From positions 26,866 to 90,865 of the forward strand of contig JBBSAJ010000008.1 of NCBI GenBank assembly GCA_038252405.1: 64,000 nucleotides of DNA, written 5' to 3'. A model generated the notes under the pieces. The model saw only the letters and a list, made by a program, of their open reading frames with translations. It was not told the origin of the DNA and ran no database searches. The stretch's first letter is position 1. Every line of letters begins with the position of its first letter. This DNA is from Actinomycetes bacterium (GTDB lineage Bacteria; Actinomycetota; Actinomycetes; Prado026). A program made the translations under genes and the position numbers. This document shows positions 2,668 to 24,693 of the stretch, in pieces.

Positions 2668-3336
2668 TCAGCTGGGCAGAATCGAGCGCAGGTGGTCCAC
2701 GGCGTGCTCTCGGTGGACGTCGAGCAGCCGGACCACCTCCTCCACGTCCCGCCGCCGCACGGCATGGAGCACCGCCCGGTGCTCGGCGGTCACGGCGTCC
2801 CGGTTCGCGTCGTCGCCGTAGTAGACCGAGCGGTAGGTGTCGGTCGCGTCCCACAGCACCCGGACCAGCCGGGCCAGCCGCGGCATCCGGGCCGCCTCCA
2901 CCAGGCCGAAGTGCAGCCGGCGGTTGGCGGCCGTCATGGCGGTCAGGTCCCCGCGCGCCGCGGCCGCCTCGCAGTCGGCCACCGCCTCCGCGGCCCGCTC
3001 GACGTCCTCCTCGCTCAGCCGGGGCACGCCGACCCGCACCGCCTCCGACTCCAGCAGGGTGCGGATCCGGTACACCTCGATCAGGTCGGTGACCGACAGC
3101 TCGGTCACGAAGTAGCCGCGGTGCGGCTCGTAGGTGACCTGACCCTCCCCCTCGAGGATCTTCAGCGCCTCCCGCAGCGGCACCCGGGAGACTCCATACG
3201 CCTCGGCCAGCGCCTCCTGTCGGATCTGCTGACCCGGCGCCAGCTCCCCCGACACGATGGCCCGGCGCAGCGCCTCGAGCACCGCCTCCTGGGCGGTCGG
3301 CGGACGCCGGAAGTCCTCGGCCGAATGGACGCTCAT
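2668..3336 (-). CDS. GntR family transcriptional regulator (FCD domain)
   Basis: HTH segment LRRAIVSGELAPG...YGVSRVPLREAL plus FCD-like C-terminus; ATGA overlap with the CoA-transferase stop. Confidence 0.9.
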   Translation of the reverse strand: MSVHSAEDFRRPPTAQEAVLEALRRAIVSGELAPGQQIRQEALAEAYGVSRVPLREALKILEGEGQVTYEPHRGYFVTELSVTDLIEVYRIRTLLESEAVRVGVPRLSEEDVERAAEAVADCEAAAARGDLTAMTAANRRLHFGLVEAARMPRLARLVRVLWDATDTYRSVYYGDDANRDAVTAEHRAVLHAVRRRDVEEVVRLLDVHREHAVDHLRSILPS

Positions 3337-4463
3337 CGAAGCTCCCTCAGCACCTCGTCGGTGTGGGCACCCAGCGTCGGGGGCGGCCGCAGGTAGCGCA
3401 CCGGGGTCGCCGACAGCCCGATCGGGTCGGCCACGGTCCGGATGCCGTCCACGGTGACGACCGGAGCCAGCCCGAGCCGCTCGGCCAGCGCCATCGCGTC
3501 GCCCACGTCGTTGATCGGGCCGCACGGCACCCCGGCGCCGGTGAGCAGGGCCGCCCACTCCTCGGCCGGCCGGGCGGCCAGGGCTGCGGTCAGCTCCGCG
3601 GCCAGCGCGTCCCGGTGCGCGACCCGGCTCGGGTTCGTGGCGAACCGCGGGTCGGTGGCCAGCTCCGGGCACCCCAGGACGCCGGCCAGCGCGGTGAACT
3701 GCCTGTCGTTGCCCACGGCCAGCGCGAGCGGCCGGTCGGCGGTGTCGAGCACCTCGTACGGCGCGATCGAGGGGTGCCGGTTGCCCATGATCCCCGGCAC
3801 CACCCCGGCTGCCACGTACCCGGACGCCTGGTTGACCAGTGCGGACAGCAGCGAGGACAGCAGGTTGACCTCCACCCGCTGCCCCTCGCCGGTGCGCTCG
3901 CGGTGCCGCAGCGCGGCCAGGATCCCGATCGTCGCGTGCAGGCCGGTGACGACGTCGACGAGCGCCACCCCGACCTTCGTGGGCTCCCCAAGGCCCGGCC
4001 CGGTGACGCTCATCAGCCCGCCGACGGCCTGCACCAGCAGGTCGTACCCCGGCAGCCCCGCGCCGGCGCCGCGGCCGAATCCGGTGACCGACGCGTAGAC
4101 CACGGACGGGTTGAGCGCCGTCACGTCGTCGTACCCCAGCCCCAGCCGCTCCATCGTCCCCGGCGGGAAGTTCTCGATGACGACGTCTGCCCGCGCGGCC
4201 AGCCGCAGCGCAGCCGCGCGTCCGTCGGTCGTCTTCAGGTCGAGCGCCACCGACCGCTTGTTGCGGTTGACACCGAGAAAGTAGGTGGCCTCCCCGGACT
4301 CCGTCCAGGGCGGCCCCCAGGCCCTGGTGTCGTCGCCGGCGCCCGGCCGCTCGACCTTGACCACGTCGGCGCCGAGATCGGCCAGCAGCATGGTGGCGTA
4401 CGGGCCGGCCAGCACCCGGCTGAAGTCGGCCACCACGACACCGGCCAGGGACGCATCCGTCAT
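3333..4463 (-). CDS. CaiB/BaiF family III CoA-transferase
   Basis: [32 protein letters not shown] and GYD motifs. Confidence 0.92.
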
Positions 4464-9425: not shown

Positions 9426-10253
9426 TCAGCTGGCGCCGACCTCGAACCGGGCGAACCCGCTCACCGTGACGCCGGCGTCGGCCAGCACCTGGGCGACCGT
9501 CTTCTTGCTGTCCTGCACCGAGGGCTGCTCGGTGAGGACGGCGTCCTTGAAGAAGGCGTTGACCTTGCCCTCGACGATCTTGGCGATGGCCTGCTCCGGC
9601 TTGCCCTCGGCCCGGGCCGACTCTTCGGCGATGTGCCGCTCGCCGGCCACGAGGTCCTCGGGGACCTCGTCGCGGGTGGTGTACCGCGGGCGCATGGCCG
9701 CGACCTGCATGGCCGCCCCGCGGGCCGCCTCGGCCGACTGGTCGCCGTCACCGGTGTACTGCACGAGGACGCCGACCTGCGGGGGCAGGGCCGGGTCCTT
9801 CTTGTGCAGGTAGGTGGCCACCTGACCGTCCAGGACGGCCAGCCGGCGCAGCTCGAGCTTCTCGCCGATGACGGAGGACTGCGCCTCGATGGTCTCCTGG
9901 ACCGTGGCGCCGTCGCCGAGCACGGAGGCGCGGGCGGCCGGGACGTCGGCCGGCCGGGTCGCCTCGACGTGCGCGGCGATGCGCGCCGCGAGGTCCTGGA
10001 AGCCCTGGTTCTTGGCCACGAAGTCGGTCTCGCAGTTGAGCTCGATGATCGCCGGGCCGGAGACGGCGACCAGGCCGTTGGCAGCGACCCGCCCGGCCCG
10101 CTTGTCGACGTCCTTCGCTCCCTTGACCCGCAGGATCTCAACGGCCTTGTCGAAGTCGCCGTCGGTCTCCTCCAGGGCCCGCTTGCAGTCCATCATCCCG
10201 GCCGCGGTCAGGTCGCGGAGCCGTTTGACGTCGACAGCGGTGAAGTTAGCCAT
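9426..10253 (-). CDS. tsf: Elongation factor Ts
   Basis: [16 protein letters not shown] and [10 protein letters not shown]. Confidence 0.96.
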
Positions 10254-13368: not shown

Positions 13369-14295
13369 TCAGTCCTCGTCGTGCTGCTCGGCCAGCTTGC
13401 CGCGCAGCTGCAGCACGGCCTTGGTGTGCATCTGGCAGATCCGGCTCTCGGTGACCCCGAGGACCTGGCCGATCTCGGCCAGGGTCAACCCCTCGTAGTA
13501 GTACAGCGTGACGACGATCTTCTCCCGCTCGGGCAGCGTGTTGATCGCCTTGGCGAGCAGGTACTTGGTCTCCTCGGACTCGAACGCCGACACCGGGTCC
13601 TCGGCGCGGGTGTCCTCCAAAGTGTCGACCAGGCTGAGCTTGTCGCCCTTCTCGCCACCGACGCTGAGCAGCTCGTCGAGGGCCACGACGTTCACGAAGG
13701 ACACCTGGCTGAAGATCTGGTGCAGATCCTCCAGCGCGATGCCCATCTCGGCGGCCACCTCGGCCTCGGTGGGCGTGCGGTGCAGAGACGACTCGAGGCT
13801 CGCGTACGCCTTCTCCACCTCGCGGGCCTTGTACCGGATCGACCGCGGGATCCAGTCGATGGCCCGCAGCTCGTCGATGATCGCGCCGCGGATCCGGCTG
13901 ATCGCGTACGTCTCGAACTTGATCGCCCGGTCGAGGTCGAACTTCACGATCGCGTCGATGAGCCCGAAGATGCCGTAGGAGACCAGATCGGCCTGCTCGA
14001 TGTTCGGCGGCAGTCCGACGCCGACCCGACCGGCCACGTACTTGACCAGCGGCGAGTAGTGCAGGATCAGCCGCTCCCGCAGCTGTTGGCCGCCGGTCGC
14101 CTTGAAGTCGCGCCACAGCTGCTGCAGCGCGACCTCGGCATCGGCCTTGTCGGCGGCCGCCTCAGCTGCCGCGGCGGCGACGGGGTCGACGGGCGCGGCG
14201 TCGGTGTCGGCGTCGTCCAGGTCGGCACCGACCACGGCGAGGTCGTCCTCGGCCGTGACGGCCCCACCGTCAGGCTCGGGGGTGCGCCCGCTCAT
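13369..14295 (-). CDS. whiG: FliA/WhiG family RNA polymerase sigma factor
   Basis: [28 protein letters not shown] and [12 protein letters not shown]. Confidence 0.9.
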
Positions 14296-15238
14296 ACGTG
14301 GTCCTCAACCTTTCGACTGACACATGGGTGTAGATCTGCGTGGTGGCGAGCGTAGCGTGGCCGAGCAGCTCCTGGACGGAGCGGAGGTCCGCGCCCCCCT
14401 CGAGCAGGTGCGTGGCCGCCGAGTGCCGCAGCCCGTGTGGACCCACGTCGGGCGCGTCCGGCACCGACCGTAGTCGCTGGTGCACCAGCTCGCGGACCGC
14501 GCGGACGCCCAGCCGCTGGCCGCGTGCCCCGAGGAACAGCGCTGGGCCGCTCGCCGCGGTCACCAGGGCGGGCCGGCCGCGGCTGAGCCAGTCGGTCACG
14601 GCACGGGCCGCCGGCAGGCCGATCGGCACGGTGCGCTCCTTGCGCCCCTTCCCGAGGACCCTCAGCACCCGCCGCTCGAGGTCGACGTCGTCAACGTCGA
14701 GGCCGACCAGCTCGCTGACCCGGATGCCGGACGCGTAGAGCACCTCGAGCACCGCGCGGTCCCGCAGATGGCCCGGCTCGCCGTCGTCGGCGGCGACCGC
14801 AGCCACTTCGAGCAGCTGGCGGGCGTGCTCCTGGTGCAGCACCGCCGGCAGGGTGCGATGAGGGCGGGGCGCCGCCAGCAGCCGGGCCGGGTCCTCGACG
14901 AGCAGCCCACGGCGCACCGCCCAGGAGGTGAAGGTGCGGGCCGCGGCGGCCCGCCGGGCCAGGGTGCTGCGGGCCGCTCCCCCGGCGGACTGGGCAGCCA
15001 GCCAGGAGCGCAGCAGGGCCAGGTCGAGGCCGTCCAGGCCGGCGACGCCTCGGCGCGCGGCGAAGGTCAACAGCGACGTGACATCACCGGCGTAGGCGCG
15101 CACGGTGTGCGCCGACAGGTCACGCTCGGCCGACAGGTGTGCCCGGAACCCCTCCAGCGCCTCGGCCGGGCCGGGCGGGAGGTCCAGCGCGCCGTGGGCC
15201 GGCGTCGCGGCCCCCCCGGGCCGGACGTCACGGGTCAT
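14270..15238 (-). CDS. xerC: Tyrosine recombinase XerC
   Basis: [30 protein letters not shown] and YTH; synteny with dprA. Confidence 0.92.
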
Positions 15239-15269
15239 GGGGTCACCGTCGGTCGGATCGGGACCTAGG

Positions 15270-16451
15270 TCAAGCACCGCCACGCGGCGGCGGGTCGGGA
15301 TCGTCCGAACGGCCAGGGGTCTCCGCCAACCGGTACCCCCCGGCCGCTCCCTCCACCAGGCCCAGCAGCTCGAGCTGCCGGATCCGTTGGAGCACCAGGT
15401 CGAGGGACAGCCCGGACACCGATGCCAGCTTGGCTGGGAGGCTGGGCCGCCGGACCGGCACCGCCTCCAGCACCCGCAGCGCCACCGGGTCGAGCAGGTC
15501 CTCGGGCCGGGTCTTGCCAGCAGTCGGCGGCGGCAGAGCCAGCCCGTCGGTGAGCGAGCCGACCAGCTCGACGATCTCGCCGGCGTGGGTGACCAGTGCC
15601 GCCCCGAGGTCGCGGATCTCGTGGTGACAACCGGCCGACATCACCGAGGTCACCGGCCCAGGCACGGCCATCACCTCCCGGGAGAGCGACCGGGCCCAGC
15701 CCGCCGTGTTGCGCGCCCCGCTGCGCAGTGCGGCCTCGACCAGGACGGTGCCCCGGGTCAGCGCGGCGATCAGCCGGTTGCGGTCGAGGAACCGGGCCCG
15801 GGTCGGATGGCACCCCGGGGGCAGCTCACTGACCAGCAGCCCCTCGGCGGCGATCCGGCCGAACAGGGCGTCGTGCCCGCGCGGGTAGGCCACGTCAACG
15901 CTGTTGGCCAGCACCGCCACAGTCGAACCGGCGCCGGCCAGCACCCCGCGGTGCGCGGCCGCGTCGATGCCGTAGGCGCCGCCGGAGACCACTGCCCACC
16001 CGGCGTCCGCGAGGCCGGCTCCCAGCTCGGCCGCCACATGCGTGCCGTACGCGGTGGCCGCCCGGGACCCCACCATTGCCACCGACCGCAGCGCGGCGAA
16101 CCGCAGGTTGCCGGGGCCGCGCACCCACAAGGCCAGCGGCGGAGCGGTCGGGCCCCTGGCCCCGACCGAGCCGGCCAGGTCCTCAAGCTGGCTGGGCCAC
16201 TCCAGGTCGCCGGGCACGACCAGCCGGGTGCCCGTGCGCCCGGCCCGGTCGAGGTCGCGTTCGGGGTCGGCGTCGGACAGCCGGGCCCGGTAGTGCTCGA
16301 CCCCGGGCAGCCCCGGGTCACCGGCCCGGACCTGCTGCAGCACCTCGAACGCCCCGAACCGCTGCACCCGTTGCCACAACAGGGGGTCGTTGGGCTCGGC
16401 CAGCCGACACAGCGCGGCCCTGGCGACCCGGTCGTCGTCCGGGCCGGTCAT
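15270..16451 (-). CDS. dprA: DNA-processing protein DprA
   Basis: [32 protein letters not shown] and VEAALRSGA; ATGA overlap with the comM stop. Confidence 0.94.
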
Positions 16452-17087
16452 GCCGCGGCCCCCGGGATCGCGGCACTGGTCCGTAGGTCGATGGCCTGCA
16501 GCACCTCGGGCACGCCCGGCTGGTCCCGGCCGGCGAGGTCGGCGAGGGTCCAGGCCACACGTAGCACCCGGTCGACGCCGCGGGCGGTCAGCCGGCCGCG
16601 GCCGAACGCGTCGTGGAGCGGCGCCAGCGCGGCCGGGGGCAGCCGCCAACGGGGTCCGCGCAGCTCGACGCCCGGCACCCGCGCGTTGCAGGCCCAGGGG
16701 GTGCCCAGCCAGCGCTGTTCGGCACGCTCCCGCGCGGCGAGCACCCGGCGAGCCACCGCGGCCGACGGCTCGTGCCGACCGGCGTCCAGCAGCTCGACCC
16801 GGCTCGGCTGGGTGACACCGACCACCAGGTCGATCCGGTCGAGCAGTGGCCCGGACAGCCGCCCGGTGTAGCGCATCTTCTGGATCGGGGTGCAGGAGCA
16901 CGCGGCCGGCTGGCCCGGCACCACGACGCCGGACAGCCCGCACGGACAGGGGTTCGCAGCCAGCACCAGTTGGAACCGGGCCGGGTAGCGGACGCTGCCC
17001 CTCGATCGGTCGAGCACCACCTCGCCGGACTCCAGCGGCTGGCGCAGCGAGTCGAGCACGCCGGCCGCGAACTCCGGCGCCTCGTCG
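16448..17087 (-). pseudogene. comM: 3' half of the split comM/yifB (Mg-chelatase-like AAA+ ATPase)
   Basis: DEAPEFAAGVLDSLRQPLESG, LAANPCPCG and LSGPLLDRID; in-frame TAG four codons upstream, inside the element arm. Confidence 0.92.
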
Positions 17088-17107
17088 TGTGAATGCTATT
17101 CGCACCC
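17079..17107. other. Left attachment junction: 9-bp core GCCTCGTCG plus 20-bp arm
   Basis: Core 17079-17087; arm TGTGAATGCTATTCGCACCC 17088-17107. Confidence 0.85.
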
Positions 17108-17157
17108 TACCGGCAGGGGCTGTGGGGTAGGTCCCTGGCGAGCCCGAGGCTCTATTT

Positions 17158-18039
17158 CTACGTCAGTACGTCTACCAGTTCCGCGGTTGCCAGGAGCGGC
17201 CAGGAGCATCGGGGCCGCCCCGCAGGCGTCGTCCCTGTCGGTGACGCAGAGAAGCTGACGCAGGACCAGTGACGTTCTGCCGGAATAGGAGAGGACCCCG
17301 TTGCGGGGAAGTTCAGCAGCTGCGCCGGCTCCACGCGGTCGATCCCGGCTGTCGGAGGCGTTCTCGCCGCTGCGACCGTCCCGGGCTTCCCTTTGCTGAC
17401 CGAGACGTGCTCGACGATGCTCTTGCCGAAAGACTCAGCGACCCACTTGTCAAACCGGAAGGGACCAATTCTTCTCGTCAAGACCCGGAGCTTCTCGTCA
17501 GGACCCGGACACACCCGACCCGCAGGCCAGCAGTGATGTGGCGCTTGACGTGGCGATGCCGCTGAGGTTCCCGTACGGCGTCCCGGTGAATTCGGGCGGA
17601 ATGATAGTTGTAGGAGCCTGTGCCATTGTTTGGACAACCGTAGGACCAGTGAGCGCTTACGTCAGCGTAGCCCGACTCGGGGGGTGTTGCCCGCGTAGCT
17701 GTAGGCTCGATACTTGGACTAACTGCTTCGCTCAAGCCAGGTGTAGGTGATCCTGATCAGGTCCGTGGCGCTGGTTCTCGACTGCTTGCCCCGGCCGGTC
17801 ACGGGATCTCCCTCAAGGTGATAGCTGCGGACCGCGTTCGCCACAGCCTGCCCAAGACGGACCACGTTGGCTCCGCCGTTTGCGGCAACACCCCGCTCAA
17901 TCAAGAAGACGACAGACTGCCCCTCGGTGACCCTGGCGCTCGACTCGGTCGTATCCGTATCGCGCCGAAGATGCATGGACTGGGTCCGGTAGTCGTAGGT
18001 GGTGTCGGTTCGGGACAAGACCACGTCCGAGCGCGACAA
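17158..18039 (-). pseudogene. Possible degraded gene of unknown function inside the element
   Basis: Staggered ORFs 17719-18039, 17478-17735 and 17158-17637; the last two join in frame if one copy of a 20-bp tandem duplication (17471-17510) is removed. Confidence 0.3.
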
Positions 18040-18267
18040 AGCACCGGTCGACCGGTGCCCGTGGGCGAAGTGGGCCGCGTCCCGGTCGTGCGTCGTGGGG
18101 GCCGCGCTCGATCGTGGTGCTTGTCGCCCCGGCGCGATGGTGATGGCTGTCCTAGGGGTAGGTCACGCGGTGAGGATCGACATGCGGAGCCGCCGCTCCC
18201 GCCGCAGTGGGGCTGAACAGCGCCGCGACGACGGCTGCGAGGCAGGCGGCAAGGCGTCGAAGGAAGA

Positions 18268-18726
18268 TCATTCGATCGACACCTTGAATACGAGTCGACC
18301 GAAGTCCGGCTCAAGCCCAATGTCGGTGCAGGAGTATCGCCGTGAACCATCCGGAAGCACCTCGACGAACATCCCCGACGTTTCACTCTGAGATTCGAAC
18401 CGACCGCGGCCCCGACCCGAGTCCCAGACGTTGTAGATCACCAGCCGCCCATCCGTCTGCCCTACCTCGATCACCGACCGGGTTGGTGCGGAGTCGCTCC
18501 AGAGAACCAGCGACGGACTCGAAGTTCCGGCGACAACAAGCTGGCCAGCCGTAGCGAGAAACACGCCCTGTCGCCAACGAGGTCCGACAGACTCGAAGAT
18601 AAGAGTGATCCGCTGGCCTGGCGAGATCGGCAGCGCTTCGATCTTGACGGCTGGCTGACCGTCCGGGCCGCTAACGGACTTGCTCAGGGTCCTGTCGGGG
18701 AGCCGGGCCGGACCGAACGAAGTCAT
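18268..18726 (-). CDS. Candidate immunity protein (152 aa)
   Basis: Directly downstream of the toxin with ATGA overlap; protein-like composition; family not recognised. Confidence 0.65.
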   Translation of the reverse strand: MTSFGPARLPDRTLSKSVSGPDGQPAVKIEALPISPGQRITLIFESVGPRWRQGVFLATAGQLVVAGTSSPSLVLWSDSAPTRSVIEVGQTDGRLVIYNVWDSGRGRGRFESQSETSGMFVEVLPDGSRRYSCTDIGLEPDFGRLVFKVSIE

Positions 18727-20036
18727 GGCGTCGGTCCTGTGTAGAAGCGGAACGGATCAACTGCGGCATGCTCCCAGGGCCACAGCGGTTCCAGGTTGTC
18801 GAGGGTGTGCCCTCCGCCCTGCCACCTCGGGACGATGTGGTTCAGCTCCTTTGGCACACCGAGTTCATCCTGCAGCGGAGGCTTCCCGGCCTCCATGCGG
18901 GCTAGGTTCGACGCACTGTACTCGCCTTCGAGGGCGTCGTTAGCTGCGTTCTTCCAGTACCTCGCACGAACCGTGGACCACGATGGCGAGTTCCCAGCCC
19001 TCGTCAAGTTCTCGATTGGATCGCCGACCCTCCAGCCAGTTGCTGCGGTGTCTGCGGCGCGCCGCCGCAGAACGTCCTGAATGACGGACATCCGCGGGGT
19101 GGTGATGTTGTCGCCGATCATGGCCAGCTGGTTCTCGGTCAGCTGACTGACGTCGTAGCACTTCGTCTGCCAGTCCTCGGAGGCGTTGGCCCGCTCGTGG
19201 AAGCAGTACTTCCCATCCAGCTGCCCGATGAACTCCCGCTCAGGCTCCGGGCCGGTCATGTGGAGGATCGGAAGGGTGTATGCGGGCGGGACCTGCAGGC
19301 TCTCCGGGATGCTGTAGACCGAGACGGCCAGGTCGCTGCCGCTGTGCGTGTTGGCGGCGGGGGTGGTGGAGGCAGTCGGCAGCGGGGTCGTGGCCGGCGG
19401 CAGCGGCGGCGGCGGGGTCCCGGTGATGATCGGGACCGGGATCTCGTCCGGCTTGGGGGTGGTGCAGTGCCCGCTGACGAGGACCTCACCGGCCGGGCAC
19501 TGGGTGCCGTGCCCGCTCGCGGGTGTCTTGGTGCCGGTGGACACGCCCCCGGTGGCCTTCGTCTTGGCCTTGGTCGGCGCGCTTGGCTTCGCCGTGGTTG
19601 TCCGGCCCGCGGGGTGCGCGTGGGACCCGCTGCTGCTGCTGGAGGACGACGTTCGGGTGCCTGTCGAGATGGCCTGTGCCGCGCGCGCGATCGCGGCAGC
19701 GCTGTAGAACCCGGCGGTGCGCTCGCTCATTGCCATCGCGTCGCCGCTACGCTCGGAAAGTGCAGCGACCTGCTCAGCGCTGACGACGGTTCCCTCCCCG
19801 GCCACCTCTTGCGCCCGGATCTCCGCGGCGGTGGCCTGCGCCACGTCCGCCTCGTAGTTGGTCTCGCTCAGGCGGATGTCTGCCGGCGTGACCCAGACGG
19901 GAAGTCCGCCAGCCGGCTCTCCGCCGCCCGCCCAGCCTGCTCGCAGCCCGGACGGGTCGTTGTTGCTGACCGGGTTGCCGCCGGCGTACGCGTACGGGTT
20001 GCCGGCGTTGACCAAGGTCGTGGGAGGTGAACGCAC
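18723..20036 (-). CDS. Rhs C-terminal part: core end, Pro/Thr linker and HNH/EndoVII-like nuclease toxin
   Basis: NPYAYAGGNPVSNNDPSGL (Rhs DPxG motif); tip ...KELNHIVPRWQGGGHTLDNLEPLWPWEHAAVDPFR. Confidence 0.75.
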   Translation of the reverse strand: MRSPPTTLVNAGNPYAYAGGNPVSNNDPSGLRAGWAGGGEPAGGLPVWVTPADIRLSETNYEADVAQATAAEIRAQEVAGEGTVVSAEQVAALSERSGDAMAMSERTAGFYSAAAIARAAQAISTGTRTSSSSSSSGSHAHPAGRTTTAKPSAPTKAKTKATGGVSTGTKTPASGHGTQCPAGEVLVSGHCTTPKPDEIPVPIITGTPPPPLPPATTPLPTASTTPAANTHSGSDLAVSVYSIPESLQVPPAYTLPILHMTGPEPEREFIGQLDGKYCFHERANASEDWQTKCYDVSQLTENQLAMIGDNITTPRMSVIQDVLRRRAADTAATGWRVGDPIENLTRAGNSPSWSTVRARYWKNAANDALEGEYSASNLARMEAGKPPLQDELGVPKELNHIVPRWQGGGHTLDNLEPLWPWEHAAVDPFRFYTGPTP

Positions 20037-22284
20037 CGGTCGTCGGGTCGTACCAGCGGGCGTTCATGTTCACCAGACCCGTGCCGGAGGTCCAGCCGCC
20101 CTGGTACCCCAGCTTCGTGGTGGACGTCCCGGTGGTGGAGTCGACGGTGCCGTACGGGGTGTACGCCGTCGTCGCGGCCACGGTGCCGGTCGGGGACACC
20201 TGCGCGAGGACGTCGCCGCGGCTGTTGGTGAACGCGAACGTGGTGGACGCCCCGGTCTTCACCGACAGCAGCCCAGCGGCCCGGCCGTACGTGGACGACC
20301 CGTCGGTCACCGGGGACGTCTCGGTGCCGGCGTAGGTGAACGTCGCGGTGCCGGCGGTCAGCAGCCGGCCGAGACCGTCGTAGGTGTTGACGGAGCCGCC
20401 GTCGGAGGCGAGCTGGTCGTACGCGTTGTGCTGCGTGCTGCGGGTGCCCAGGCTGGTGGTGGTCGTCGCGAGGGTGCCGCGCGCGGTATACGTGTACGTT
20501 GTGGTTCCGGCGGTCAGCAGCCGGTCCCGCGCGTCGTACGTCGCGGTGGTGCCGTTGACGCTGGTCCGGTTGCCGTTCGCGTCGTAGGTGTACGTCTCCC
20601 CACCGCCGCCGGGCTTCGTCCAGCTGAGGAGGCGCTGGGAGCGGTCGTAGGTGTAGGTGTTCGTCCCGACCCCGGCGCCTGTCCCGACGACGGTCTGGGA
20701 GGTGACCAGGTCCCCGGTGAAGGTGTCCTGGTACCCGTAGACGGTGGTGCCGGCCTGCGCGACGGTGTCGGAGGTGACCCGCCCGGCCGCGTCGTAGCCG
20801 AGGGTCTCCACCGGGCCCCCCGTGCCGTAGGTGACGGTCGTCGGGCGGTCCGCCGCGTCGTAGCCGTAGGCGATCGTCGCGCCGGACACCGGGTCGACCA
20901 CGCTCGCCAGCTGCCCGCCCGTGTAGGTGTAGCTGGCGGTCCCGGCCGCGTCGGTGCGGGTCGCGACCCGTCCGGCCGCCGTGTAGGTGAACGACGACGC
21001 CCCGGCCGGACCGGCGCTGGAGACGAGCAGGTTACGGTCGTCGTAGGTGAACGTCTGCGCCGCGTTCGTGCCGACCTTCGCCGAGACCAGCCGCCCGACC
21101 GGGTCGTAGCTGAACGCCAGCGACGGTGTTGCGACCTCCGCGCCCGCACCCGACTGGGAGACCAGCTGCCCGTAGGAGTCGTAGCCGTAGGACACGGTCA
21201 CCCCGCCGGGCTTCGAGACGGAGGCCAGCTGTCCGGACACGTCGTAGGTGTAGGTGGTCTGCCGATCGGACAGCGTGGTCTGGCCGGCGGTCGACGGCTC
21301 CGTCGAGGTCTCCACCTGGCCCCACGTGTTGTACGTGACGGTGCGGTCGTACGCGTCGGTCGCGCCCGCGACGCCGAGGCCGGGGCGGGAGCGCACGACG
21401 CGGCCGTCCAGGTCGTAGTACACCTGCGAGGTCGACGTGGTGGGGCTGGCCGTGGTCCCGGTCGGGATCGTGGTCGCGGTCGGCTGCCCGTTCTCGTTGT
21501 ATCTGGTGGTGGTGGTGTTGCCCTCGGTGTCGGTCGTCGCGGTGGTCAGTCCCGCCGCGTCGTAGCCGTAGCTGCGGGACACGACCGCGGTGCCGGACGG
21601 TGTGTAGGAGGTGACGGTGGCCGGCTGCCCGTAGCCGTCCTGACCGGTGGTGTACGTGGTGGTGGTGTACGCCCCGGTCGGGTCGGTGGTCGTGACCGGG
21701 CCGAACACTCCGTAGGAGGTGGTCGTGGAGTGCCCGGTCGGCGGGGTGACCGTGGTTGCCCGGCCCAGGTTGTCGTAGGCGTAGCTGGTCGCCGCACCGT
21801 CCGCGTCGACGCTCTTCACCAGCTGCCCGTAGATGTCGTGGTAGGCGTAGGAGGTGTCCAGCCCGGTGCCGGTGCCCGGCTTGAACAGCACGGCGGTGGC
21901 CAGCCATGGTGCGGCACCGGTGCCGAACGTCGCGGCCGGGGTGCCGCCGGCGTTGACCGTCTGGTCCTCCACCAGCGTCTCGATGTGCCCGTTCGGCGCA
22001 ACGTCGACGCGGCTGGTCCACCCGGCGCCCGGTGTGAGGGTGACGTCGAACCCGGAGTCGGTGTAGAACCCGACCGCGAGCTCCGGCGTGGACGCCGCGG
22101 CGGCGGTCGACCCGGAGGACACGGTGGCCGTCCCGGTGGTGGTGCCGTACGCGGCGGTTGTCGTGTCGACTGCGCCGGTGCCGGCGGCGGTGGACAGCCC
22201 GGAGTACTCCACCAGGTCCGCGCCGACGTCAGCCGACCCGGTCGCGGTGACCCGCCCACTTGAGTGGGTGCGAACAGCTTTCAC
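20020..22284 (-). pseudogene. Rhs/YD-repeat core, 5'-truncated at the element arm and frameshifted near 20020
   Basis: Many YD repeats (YDAAG, YDLDGR, YDPVGR, YDANGNRT) and LGYQGG...NARWYDPTTGAF; the frame changes before NPYAY. Confidence 0.85.
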
Positions 22285-22295
22285 ATGCCTCGTCG
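22266..22295. other. Right attachment junction: 20-bp arm, T, 9-bp core
   Basis: Arm GGGTGCGAACAGCTTTCACA 22266-22285; core GCCTCGTCG 22287-22295. Confidence 0.85.
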
Positions 22296-23206
22296 AGGAA
22301 CAGCACCCCGTGGTGGGCCAGGCTGGCCGCCCCCGGACGGGCGATCCCGCTGCCCCCGCCGACGACCGAGGCGGCCGAGGCGGTGTGGTGCGGTGCCCGG
22401 AACGGCGGCCGCTCGAGCAGCGGGCGCCCCACGGGCAGGGTCCCGGCCACCGAGTGCACGGCGGTCACCTCGAGCGCCTGCTCCCGGGTCAGCGGCGGCA
22501 GGATGCCGGGCAGCCGCTCCGCGAGCATGGTCTTCCCCGCGCCCGGCGGGCCGTGCAGCAGCAGGTGGTGGCCCCCCGCCGCGGCGATCTCCAGCGCGTG
22601 CCGCGCCGCCTGCTGGCCGGCCACGTCGCCGAGGTCGGGCCCGGTCCGGTCCAGTGCGGCCGGTGGGGCGGGCTCCGTCAGCACGGCTTCCCGCTCGCCC
22701 CGCAGCACCGCGACGAGCTCGCCCAGCGAACCGACGGCGAGCACGCTCAGGTCGGGCACCAGCGCCGCCTCGGCCGCGTTGCCCTCGGCCACCACCACGC
22801 GGCTCAGCCCCGCGGCCGCGGCCGCGAGGACGGCAGGCAGCACCCCTCGCACCGGACGGACCCGGCCGTCCAGCCCCAGCTCGCCGAGCAGCACGAGGTC
22901 GGCCACCCACCCGGGCCGCAGCCGCCCCGACGCGGCCAGCACCCCCACGGCCACGGCCAGGTCGAACCCGCTGCCGCGCTTGGGCAGGGACGCCGGGGAC
23001 AGGTTGACCGTGAGCCGGTGCTTGGGCCACGGCTCCCCGGTGTTCAGCACCGCCGCCCGCACCCGGTCCCGGGCCTCGTTGAGCGAAGCGTCCGGCAGCC
23101 CCACGAGGGTCAGCCCCGGCAGCCCCGAGGTGAGATCGACCTCCACCTCGACGACATGGCCGACCACCCCGACCAGGGCCACCGACCGGGTCCGCGCCAG
23201 CGCCAC
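22287..23206 (-). pseudogene. comM: 5' half of the split comM/yifB
   Basis: VNLSPASLPKRGSGFDLA, Walker A GPPGAGKT, RAPHH and HHGVLFLDEA, then element-derived residues to a stop at 22229. Confidence 0.93.
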
Positions 23207-23665: not shown

Positions 23666-23974
23666 TCAGGACTCGGGGATCTCCAGCTCGCTCTTGGCGA
23701 GCTCCTCCACGTTGACGTCCTTGAAGGTGAGGACCTTGACGTTCTTGACGAACCGGGCCGGCCGGTAGAGGTCCCACACCCAGGCATCGCTCATGGTGAC
23801 CTCGAAGTACACCTCGCCGTCGGCCGAGCGTACCTGCAGGTCCACCTTGTTGGTCAGGTAGAAGCGCCGCTCCGTCTCCACCACGTAGGAGAACAGGCCC
23901 ACCACGTCGCGGTACTCGCGGTAGAGCTGCAGCTCCATCTCGGTCTCGTACCGCTCGAGGTCCTCGGCACTCAT
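23666..23974 (-). CDS. DUF2469 family protein
   Basis: MSAEDLERYETEMELQLYREYRD..., conserved actinobacterial protein in its usual position. Confidence 0.9.
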   Translation of the reverse strand: MSAEDLERYETEMELQLYREYRDVVGLFSYVVETERRFYLTNKVDLQVRSADGEVYFEVTMSDAWVWDLYRPARFVKNVKVLTFKDVNVEELAKSELEIPES

Positions 23975-24693
23975 GCGCCCTCCCCGGCTGCGAGCTCCTC
24001 GACCCTGGGGGCCCTCACGTCCAGCACCCCTGCATCATGCCCCTCCGCGCGGCGGACCGTGACGAAGCACCGTCGATGCTCGGCGCACGGCCCGTGGGCG
24101 GCCAGCCGCTGCCGGTGCAGCGGGGTCACATAGCCCTTGTGGGTGGCGAACTCGTACTCCGGGAACTGCTCGTGCAGGTCCACCATGATCCGGTCCCGGG
24201 TCACCTTGGCAAGCACCGACGCCGCGGCCACGCAGGCCGCCACCCGGTCCCCCTTCCAGACGGCGAGACCCGGCACCCCGAGACCGCGGACCGGGAAGCC
24301 GTCGGTGAGCACGTACGCCGGGTCGACGTCGAGGCGGGCCAGCGCCCGGCGCATGCCCTCAATGTTGGCCACGTGCAGCCCGAGCCGGTCCACCTCGTCG
24401 GCGTCCACGACGACCACGGACCAGGCCAGCGCCCGTTCGCGCACCTCGGCGTACGCCGCCTCCCGGGCCGCCGTCGTGAGCAGCTTGGAGTCGGCCAACC
24501 CGGGCACCTGCCCGCGGCGTCCGTCCGGGAGCACGACCGCGGCGACCACGAGCGGGCCGGCGCACGCGCCCCGCCCGGCCTCGTCGATGCCGGCGACCGG
24601 GGAGAACCCGGCCCTGGCCAGCGCCCTCTCGTAGGCCCACAGCCCGGAGTCCCGGCGGACGACGACCCGGGGCGGCGCGTCAGGCCGAGTCAT
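23971..24693 (-). CDS. rnhB: Ribonuclease HII
   Basis: AGIDEAGRG, DSK, VAAASVLAKVTRD and HKGY. Confidence 0.95.
   Translation of the reverse strand: MTRPDAPPRVVVRRDSGLWAYERALARAGFSPVAGIDEAGRGACAGPLVVAAVVLPDGRRGQVPGLADSKLLTTAAREAAYAEVRERALAWSVVVVDADEVDRLGLHVANIEGMRRALARLDVDPAYVLTDGFPVRGLGVPGLAVWKGDRVAACVAAASVLAKVTRDRIMVDLHEQFPEYEFATHKGYVTPLHRQRLAAHGPCAEHRRCFVTVRRAEGHDAGVLDVRAPRVEELAAGEGA

Follow-up and report, generated by a model that had tools for sequence, protein, structure and literature searches.

A 64,000-nt stretch of the genome of an Actinomycetes bacterium (assembly GCA_038252405.1, contig JBBSAJ010000008.1, positions 26,866 to 90,865; hereafter the window) carries a comM/yifB gene that is interrupted precisely, at positions 17088-22286, by about 5.2 kb of foreign DNA. 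The window comes from the core chromosome of an actinobacterium with a high GC content (about 75%), and the sample is a sediment metagenome. This locus raises the question of how an insert that is bounded by attachment (att) sites, and in which no recombinase can be recognised, came to lie in a competence gene and whether it could still leave it. We conclude, with a probability of roughly two-thirds, that the insert is a decayed, non-autonomous deletion remnant of an integrative element in comM/yifB that used a large serine recombinase (LSR), and that it resembles the cis-mobilizable elements (CIMEs).

The empty form of the site is represented by a metagenome contig (L003) that is 97% identical to the window at the nucleotide level and encodes an intact ComM protein of 516 aa (P0002). 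Positions 1-3070 of L003 align to window positions 25350-22287, and positions 3062-4001 align to window positions 17087-16148. Because the alignments on the two sides overlap by 9 nt, the extra DNA of the window is 17079-22286, with these 9 nt present in two copies. The resulting direct repeat (GCCTCGTCG on the plus strand, CGACGAGGC in the sense of comM) lies at 17079-17087 (left core copy) and 22287-22295 (right core copy), and the rebuilt attB sequence contains ...CTGTTCCTCGACGAGGCGCCGGAGTTC... The 5' half of comM (22287-23206, minus strand; codons 1 to about 306) ends with ...GVLFLDEA, is 96% identical to P0002 in amino acid sequence and has the Pfam domains ChlI and Mg_chelatase; reading through into the element adds a 19-aa junk tail that stops at 22229. 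The 3' half (16448-17086, minus strand) runs from ...DEAPEFAAGVLDSLRQPLE to the natural stop codon and has the Pfam domains Mg_chelatase and Mg_chelatase_C in the corresponding gene call on an independent assembly (L004). Compared with L003, the ratio of nonsynonymous to synonymous substitution rates (dN/dS) is 0.20 in the 5' half and 0.18 in the 3' half, with no indels and a dS of about 0.07, which is similar to the neighbouring genes. The comM halves show no decay, which indicates that the insertion is recent. The independent assembly, a 9686-nt Logan contig of the source run (SRR19962010), crosses both junctions and is identical to the window at 9685 of 9686 nt. Contig depth is even across the insertion, at about 18x. 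Because the two assemblies agree across both junctions and the depth is even, misassembly is very unlikely to have produced the structure.

The element ends in two inverted arms. The arm on the comM-3' side (17087-17107, plus strand) reads GTGTGAATGCTATTCGCACCC and corresponds to a P-type half-site. The arm on the comM-5' side (22266-22286, minus strand; reverse complement ATGTGAAAGCTGTTCGCACCC) corresponds to the P'-type half-site of a rebuilt attP. The two arms are identical at 18 of 21 positions and their similarity ends directly beyond them. Among 20 million random pairs of 21-mers from the window, 14 match as well (p about 7e-7), and the arm consensus has no further occurrence within the window. 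When the ends of the element are rejoined through one core copy, they form a 50-bp site, GGGTGCGAATAGCATTCACA-CGACGAGGCA-TGTGAAAGCTGTTCGCACCC (20+10+20 nt), an imperfect dyad whose centre (GA) is not palindromic. This symmetry predicts GA as the crossover dinucleotide. In size and in shape, a dyad of about 50 bp with a non-palindromic centre corresponds to the attP of an LSR. The empty site, the 9-nt repeat and the matching arms bear out a preliminary description of this locus, made from the sequence alone, which had placed both att arms at 17088-22286 in the competence gene.

The left end of the element has a close match in a freshwater-sediment metagenome (run X6). A 2053-nt contig from this run matches window positions 17079-17128 at 49 of 50 nt, covering the arm, an 8-nt core and 21 further nt; the latter (17108-17128) belong to the sub-terminal segment beside the left arm (17108-17151). 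Across the 8-nt core the contig has a second arm-like motif (GGGTGCGAAGAGC; ...TTCACCCGGGTGCGAAGAGCGCCCTCTCGA), which is not comM. Because the arm and core occur together outside comM, the core is part of the site that the element itself carries, as would be the case in an attP. The X6 junction looks like the attP of a living relative, which suggests that the element family is active now or was until recently. The rebuilt attP had no blastn match in the phage collection, and neither IMG/VR nor the GTDB representative genomes contained the arm consensus. A looser arm pattern gave 41 single matches in JGI and ENA metagenome contigs, none of them with comM or core context, as expected of chance matches. 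Among all contigs from the source run there is a single occurrence of each arm, with no further copy, and neither an attB nor an attP form of the strain.

The preliminary description had recognised no recombinase between the arms, and our searches agree. Pfam searches of ten open reading frames (ORFs) gave matches to RHS_repeat and weak matches to HNH/LHH domains only, with no recombinase among them. A six-frame Pfam search of 17050-19400, with stop codons masked and E-values up to 1 accepted, found no PF00239, PF07508, PF13408, PF00589 or DDE domain, and PHROGs and NCBIfam scans of the element likewise found no recombinase. Across the whole window, tblastn with three full-length LSRs gave no match better than E 0.17, and neither did an unfiltered hidden Markov model (HMM) of three LSRs run against every six-frame fragment. 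A recombinase remnant inside the element had been named as the sign of simple decay; as the six-frame search and the window-wide LSR probes found none, point-mutation decay of an integrase left in place is not what happened. Recombination directionality factors share no signature, and no ORF that might encode one in the element has a family match (Pfam, PHROGs, NCBIfam). The tyrosine recombinase gene xerC (14270-15283, minus strand), located 1.8 kb from the element, was rejected as its integrase, being a housekeeping gene in a conserved comM-dprA-xerC arrangement outside the arms.

Other elements have landed in comM as well. Among the best 120 ComM homologues, seven are N-terminal halves that run into foreign tails, and P0025, P0044 and P0079 break at the same codon as the window gene (LFLDE|). 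In another contig (L002), the N-terminus of an LSR (VIYCRLSRDRSG...) begins about 40 nt past a junction at the comM codon used in the window. The contig of a further homologue (P0021) encodes, after its break, a 422-aa protein with Resolvase, Recombinase and Zn_ribbon_recom domains, followed by a prophage with capsid/head and prohead protease genes. In both contigs the LSR gene lies just inside the comM-5'-side arm and reads in the direction of comM. The window arms match none of the other comM junctions found. Mg-chelatase/ATP-dependent-protease homologues are the commonest target of predicted site-specific LSRs, accounting for 12.4% of them (Durrant et al. 2022, PMC10083194), competence genes are enriched among LSR targets (PMC10083194) and phage WO sr1WO integrates in the same gene family (PMC9203015). 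Site geometry and analogy with other elements at the same codon thus point to an LSR origin: the rebuilt site has the shape of an attP, an LSR-bearing element uses the same codon and the gene family is a published LSR preference. Three full-length LSR relatives of the L002 integrase from IMG/VR (L046-L048) were rejected as comM integrases, their upstream regions being without the comM core; they are uninformative about the window arms and served solely as probes for LSR remnants.

Two further observations concern comM as a landing site. A second recurrent breakpoint lies 8 codons upstream of the first (...GAASLAH|) and is seen in P0021, P0037, P0054 and P0068. Another element occupies the same comM codon as the window element in contig L001 (9083-12685). 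It has GGGTCTTGCCCG-like repeats 100-250 nt from the junction, two genes without a family match (231 and 421 aa) and an insertion sequence transposase (DDE_Tnp_1_4) at the contig end, and no LSR was found within its 3.6 kb of sequence.

We propose that comM was entered by an LSR element whose cargo included an Rhs toxin and immunity locus. Its LSR gene would have been located just inside the comM-5'-side arm, as in L002 and the P0021 contig. An internal deletion would then have taken out the LSR together with anything behind it and the Rhs gene up to the middle of its N-terminal domain, and the small frameshifts would have followed the deletion. The truncated Rhs gene occupies the position expected of the LSR and has the same reading direction. 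One of two origins put forward in the preliminary description, a deletion derivative that lost its integrase, fits these observations: Rhs is cut about 15 nt from the arm, where an LSR would be expected, and the cargo contains pseudogenes. Such a remnant would be immobile by itself. Recombination of attL with attR by an LSR requires a matching integrase and directionality factor, so the remnant would be fixed in place unless both were supplied in trans. Were they supplied, excision would restore comM exactly.

The upstream part of the Rhs pseudogene (20017-22251, minus strand) encodes a YD-repeat shell, with RHS_repeat (PF05593) matching in 10 stretches (E 6e-36). The ORF begins about 15 nt from the comM-5'-side arm, its 5' end is gone and the sole in-frame upstream start codon lies inside the arm. 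Its N-terminal part (about 22251-21874, approximately 125 aa) is the C-terminal two-thirds of a domain of about 190 aa, which has been cut about 65 aa from its start. Three full copies of this domain are present in a Kelch/FN3 protein (P0188; residues about 8-195, 878-1071 and 1200-1386). Identity to other Rhs proteins, which are 1000-1460 aa long in the case of the relatives, ranges from 39% to 68%, the highest value being that to the nearest relative over the last 366 residues. We considered whether circularisation could restore the Rhs 5' end across attP and rejected this, as there is an in-frame TAG 10 codons upstream and the other end of the element encodes nothing like the lost part of the domain. 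The domain of about 190 aa has no Pfam model. It has the signature GxRLVVETGVWSS...TATGSADVG...VEYSGL...WLA..VLFK and occurs as three repeats in Kelch/galactose-oxidase/FN3 proteins of 1386-1456 aa. The Rhs relatives carry a LamG domain at the N-terminus, where the window Rhs has the truncated domain.

A frameshift divides the Rhs pseudogene at 20015-20019 (minus strand), where 2 nt have been lost from a proline codon. The expected sequence is ...TSHD-P-LVNAGNPYAY..., and a homologue (P0122) has SHDPLNAGNPYAY at this position. The Rhs_assc_core model is divided between the two frames at the frameshift, and the L004 assembly carries the same sequence. The downstream part (18723-20016, minus strand) continues in the other frame with the core end, a linker rich in proline, threonine and serine, and a C-terminal HNH DNase domain. 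The conserved core end (PxxxxDPxGL) is present after the frameshift as NPYAYAGGNPVSNNDPSGL, and TIGR03696 matches there with its last 25 positions. The 5' truncation and the 2-nt frameshift leave no intact Rhs ORF with an N-terminal export/delivery region. There is no second copy of Rhs, or of the 600-bp gene fragment described below, in the window.

The tip of the Rhs protein is a C-terminal toxin domain of about 110 aa (about 18726-19060). The last 125 aa of Rhs match pyocins S2 and S8 as well as the DNase of colicin E7 (E 5e-5; PDB 1pt3_A among other entries). The same toxin domain recurs on Rhs, PT-HINT, filamentous-haemagglutinin-like and WXG100 proteins, and such a range of delivery scaffolds marks it as a predicted polymorphic toxin tip. 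Directly downstream, an intact ORF of 152 aa (18268-18726, minus strand) begins with an ATG that overlaps the toxin stop codon by 4 nt. It is 82-83% identical to 152-aa ORFs located directly downstream of toxin-domain homologues in two other contigs, L049 and L050, with the same 4-nt overlap (loci compared: window 18268-19060, L049 287-1365 and L050 6001-7070). The pair in L050 sits in an orphan array behind an Rhs protein of 2756 aa. The family of the 152-aa ORF comprises 339 clusters (50% identity) at E<=1e-3 and has no Pfam model. These comparisons identify a genuine toxin and immunity module, in which the 152-aa ORF is the predicted immunity gene. The immunity gene is likely to be the only functional part of the cargo, and when neighbours deliver the matching DNase it would give protection. 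No other metagenome run contained the part of the element that spans Rhs, toxin and immunity gene. As a separate observation, the toxin domain is often found as a short (about 200 aa) stand-alone ORF with a hydrophobic N-terminus, and the 152-aa immunity ORF always follows it with the 4-nt overlap.

Between the immunity gene and the 44-nt sub-terminal segment beside the left arm there are two further segments. The first (17753-18267; 515 bp, GC content 62-68%) has no ORF with a family match and no assigned content. The second (17152-17752, minus strand) is a gene fragment and pseudogene that is about 98% identical to a widespread metagenome sequence and is cut at 17752. Relative to the widespread version, which looks intact, it has two 1-nt frameshifts (about 17594 and 17679) and a 3-nt deletion. 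The widespread version was found in at least 10 unrelated runs from 6 studies (freshwater, sediment, soil and hot spring) at a depth of 2-5x. In the five runs examined (X2, X3, X6, X7 and X10) it shows the same differences from the window and has constant flanks, ...GGGTCACAAGAGCC| and |TGATAACCAAACGAGCC..., unlike those in the window. Its range is far broader than that of the host lineage, and a mobile gene, a cosmopolitan organism or a reagent contaminant could account for it. The ORF reconstructed from the widespread version had no protein match. The 1.2 kb beside the left arm matched no Rfam family, either at the gathering threshold or at E<=1, and no DNA among plasmids or phages, and an exact 27-mer was absent from GTDB representatives and IMG/VR. 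Accordingly, the 600-bp block has no counterpart in GTDB representatives, IMG/VR, plasmids or phages.

Overall, the cargo is a mosaic of parts, pseudogenes among them, with three frameshifts and two truncations. The preliminary description had listed Rhs, an immunity candidate and degraded ORFs as the cargo. It understated the damage, as Rhs is both truncated at its 5' end and frameshifted. For the same reason its term polymorphic-toxin module is too strong, the immunity gene alone being intact.

Several features of the element weigh against a simple deletion remnant. The deletion ends about 15 nt from an intact arm; a random deletion so near the arm would have had a small target, and this position might instead be expected if copies that could be mobilised had been selected. 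The arms are intact and the comM halves undecayed, yet the cargo has accumulated its three frameshifts and two truncations. As the insertion is young and the cargo already damaged, part of the damage may pre-date the insertion, in which case an already defective element may have integrated with outside help. In addition, no element that could be the parent, having both these arms and an LSR, was found in the phage collection, IMG/VR, the GTDB representatives or the JGI and ENA metagenomes.

These points bear on the other origin considered in the preliminary description, that of a satellite mobilised in trans. The element would then be an evolved, minimal att-flanked cassette, maintained because a matching LSR and directionality factor from the genome, or from an incoming phage or integrative and conjugative element (ICE) that shares its attP, can cut it out and insert it again, with the toxin and immunity genes brought into comM as passengers. 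The two half-sites are intact and nearly symmetric, the cargo adjoins the arm with about 15 nt to spare and the undecayed comM halves imply a recent arrival despite the damaged cargo. The arm in run X6, near-identical and in attP-like configuration, and the known LSR-driven movement of recombinase-less cassettes in staphylococci (PMC11470126) also favour a satellite. However, there is no LSR in the window, the arms are single-copy in the source-run contigs, and these contigs contain no second copy of the element, no excision product and no empty form of the strain. IMG/VR and the GTDB representatives lack the arms, the matches in JGI metagenomes are those of chance and the Rhs part is confined to the source run. 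With a cargo made up mostly of pseudogenes there is little to select beyond the immunity gene, and a single occurrence gives no sign of spread. We therefore regard an evolved satellite as unlikely, although it is the alternative that survives best.

A working hitch-hiker is a similarly doubtful proposition. It would be the serine-recombinase counterpart of a CIME or of a staphylococcal cassette, trimmed to two attP half-sites, a DNase-immunity gene and a toxin remnant, and moved into and out of comM by an X6-like helper that shares the P arm. If this were true, LSR phages and islands that target comM would be parasitised by an element that disseminates immunity genes and turns comM off and on. 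A satellite, if real, would extend trans-mobilisation by serine recombinases beyond the staphylococcal cassettes and would provide a simple substrate with two half-sites for testing such integrases.

A non-autonomous DDE transposon, similar to a miniature inverted-repeat transposable element (MITE) with cargo, is highly improbable. The arms would be its terminal inverted repeats and the 9-nt repeat its target-site duplication, with the transposase acting in trans. Inverted ends with a 9-nt direct repeat fit this anatomy, and composites of this kind often have truncated genes that abut their terminal repeats. Against this, the element contains no transposase or transposase remnant, and its insertion point coincides to the nucleotide with the junctions of other elements, one of which bears an LSR. 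The X6 contig has the same 8 nt beside the arm outside comM, which is expected of an attP core and not of a target-site duplication. The arms are unique in the window, the source contigs and three collections, with no copies at varied sites, and the rebuilt 50-bp dyad resembles an LSR attP in size and shape. Least probable of all is an assembly chimera, in which the Rhs segment was misjoined into comM during metagenome assembly or binning: the metagenomic source and the different GC and codon signals of insert and flanks would allow it, but the agreement of two assemblies across both junctions, the flat depth and the ordered repeat-and-arm junctions typical of real integration contradict it.

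A deletion remnant of an LSR element can be compared with several known systems. LSR prophages and islands in comM/yifB (PMC10083194, PMC9203015) share with the window element the target gene family, precise insertion within the coding sequence, a short core and an attP dyad of about 50 bp. The window element differs in having no LSR and no phage or transfer genes, and in its length of only 5.2 kb. CIMEs are decayed ICEs or integrative and mobilizable elements (IMEs) retaining attL and attR (PMC5704250); the window element shares with them the loss of integration genes and the retention of both att sites, and the definition of a CIME implies origin by decay. Classical CIMEs use tyrosine recombinases and tRNA genes or gene 3' ends, and they move when a new element integrates into their att site. 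LSRs normally do not recombine attP with attL or attR, which makes this route unlikely for the window element.

Cassettes that resemble the staphylococcal cassette chromosome (SCC) and lack ccr genes (PMC11470126) are also recombinase-free, with LSR-type boundary sites and conflict genes. Those beside SCCmec have been shown experimentally to be excised by CcrAB or CcrC serine recombinases encoded elsewhere (PMC11470126). They lie in tandem with their helper at rlmH, whereas the window element lies in comM of an actinobacterium, with no helper found in the window and mostly broken cargo. Orphan Rhs modules share the truncated rhs gene, the C-terminal toxin domain and the cognate immunity gene. 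They usually consist of the core end and toxin only, behind a full-length rhs gene, whereas the window element keeps nearly the whole shell inside an att-bounded insert and the window contains no parent rhs gene. The AbaR/Tn6022-type islands of Acinetobacter share with the window element a comM gene interrupted by a genomic island. These islands are Tn7-like transposons that bring their own transposition genes, produce a 5-bp duplication and lie elsewhere in comM.

An att-flanked, integrase-free element is therefore not new as a concept, as CIMEs and the ccr-less cassettes precede it. As a deletion remnant, the window element would provide a clean actinobacterial case of a known process, in which LSR elements in comM/yifB decay to att-bounded remnants without an integrase. 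It also places the crossover at the codons for the Walker B motif (LFLDE|APEF), a position at which at least four elements whose arms differ have inserted, and draws attention to the second hot spot 8 codons upstream. Finally, it suggests that a module of Rhs with a colicin-type DNase and its immunity gene can travel in such an element.

The gene order around the insertion on the minus strand is rnhB (23971-24693), DUF2469, yraN, comM/yifB, dprA (about 15270-16451), xerC and a WhiG/FliA-type sigma factor gene. The other large ORFs of the window are housekeeping genes, among them rpsB, tsf, trmD, amt, ftsY, smc, recG, ddl and leuC. The window contains one tRNA gene, which is located outside the element.

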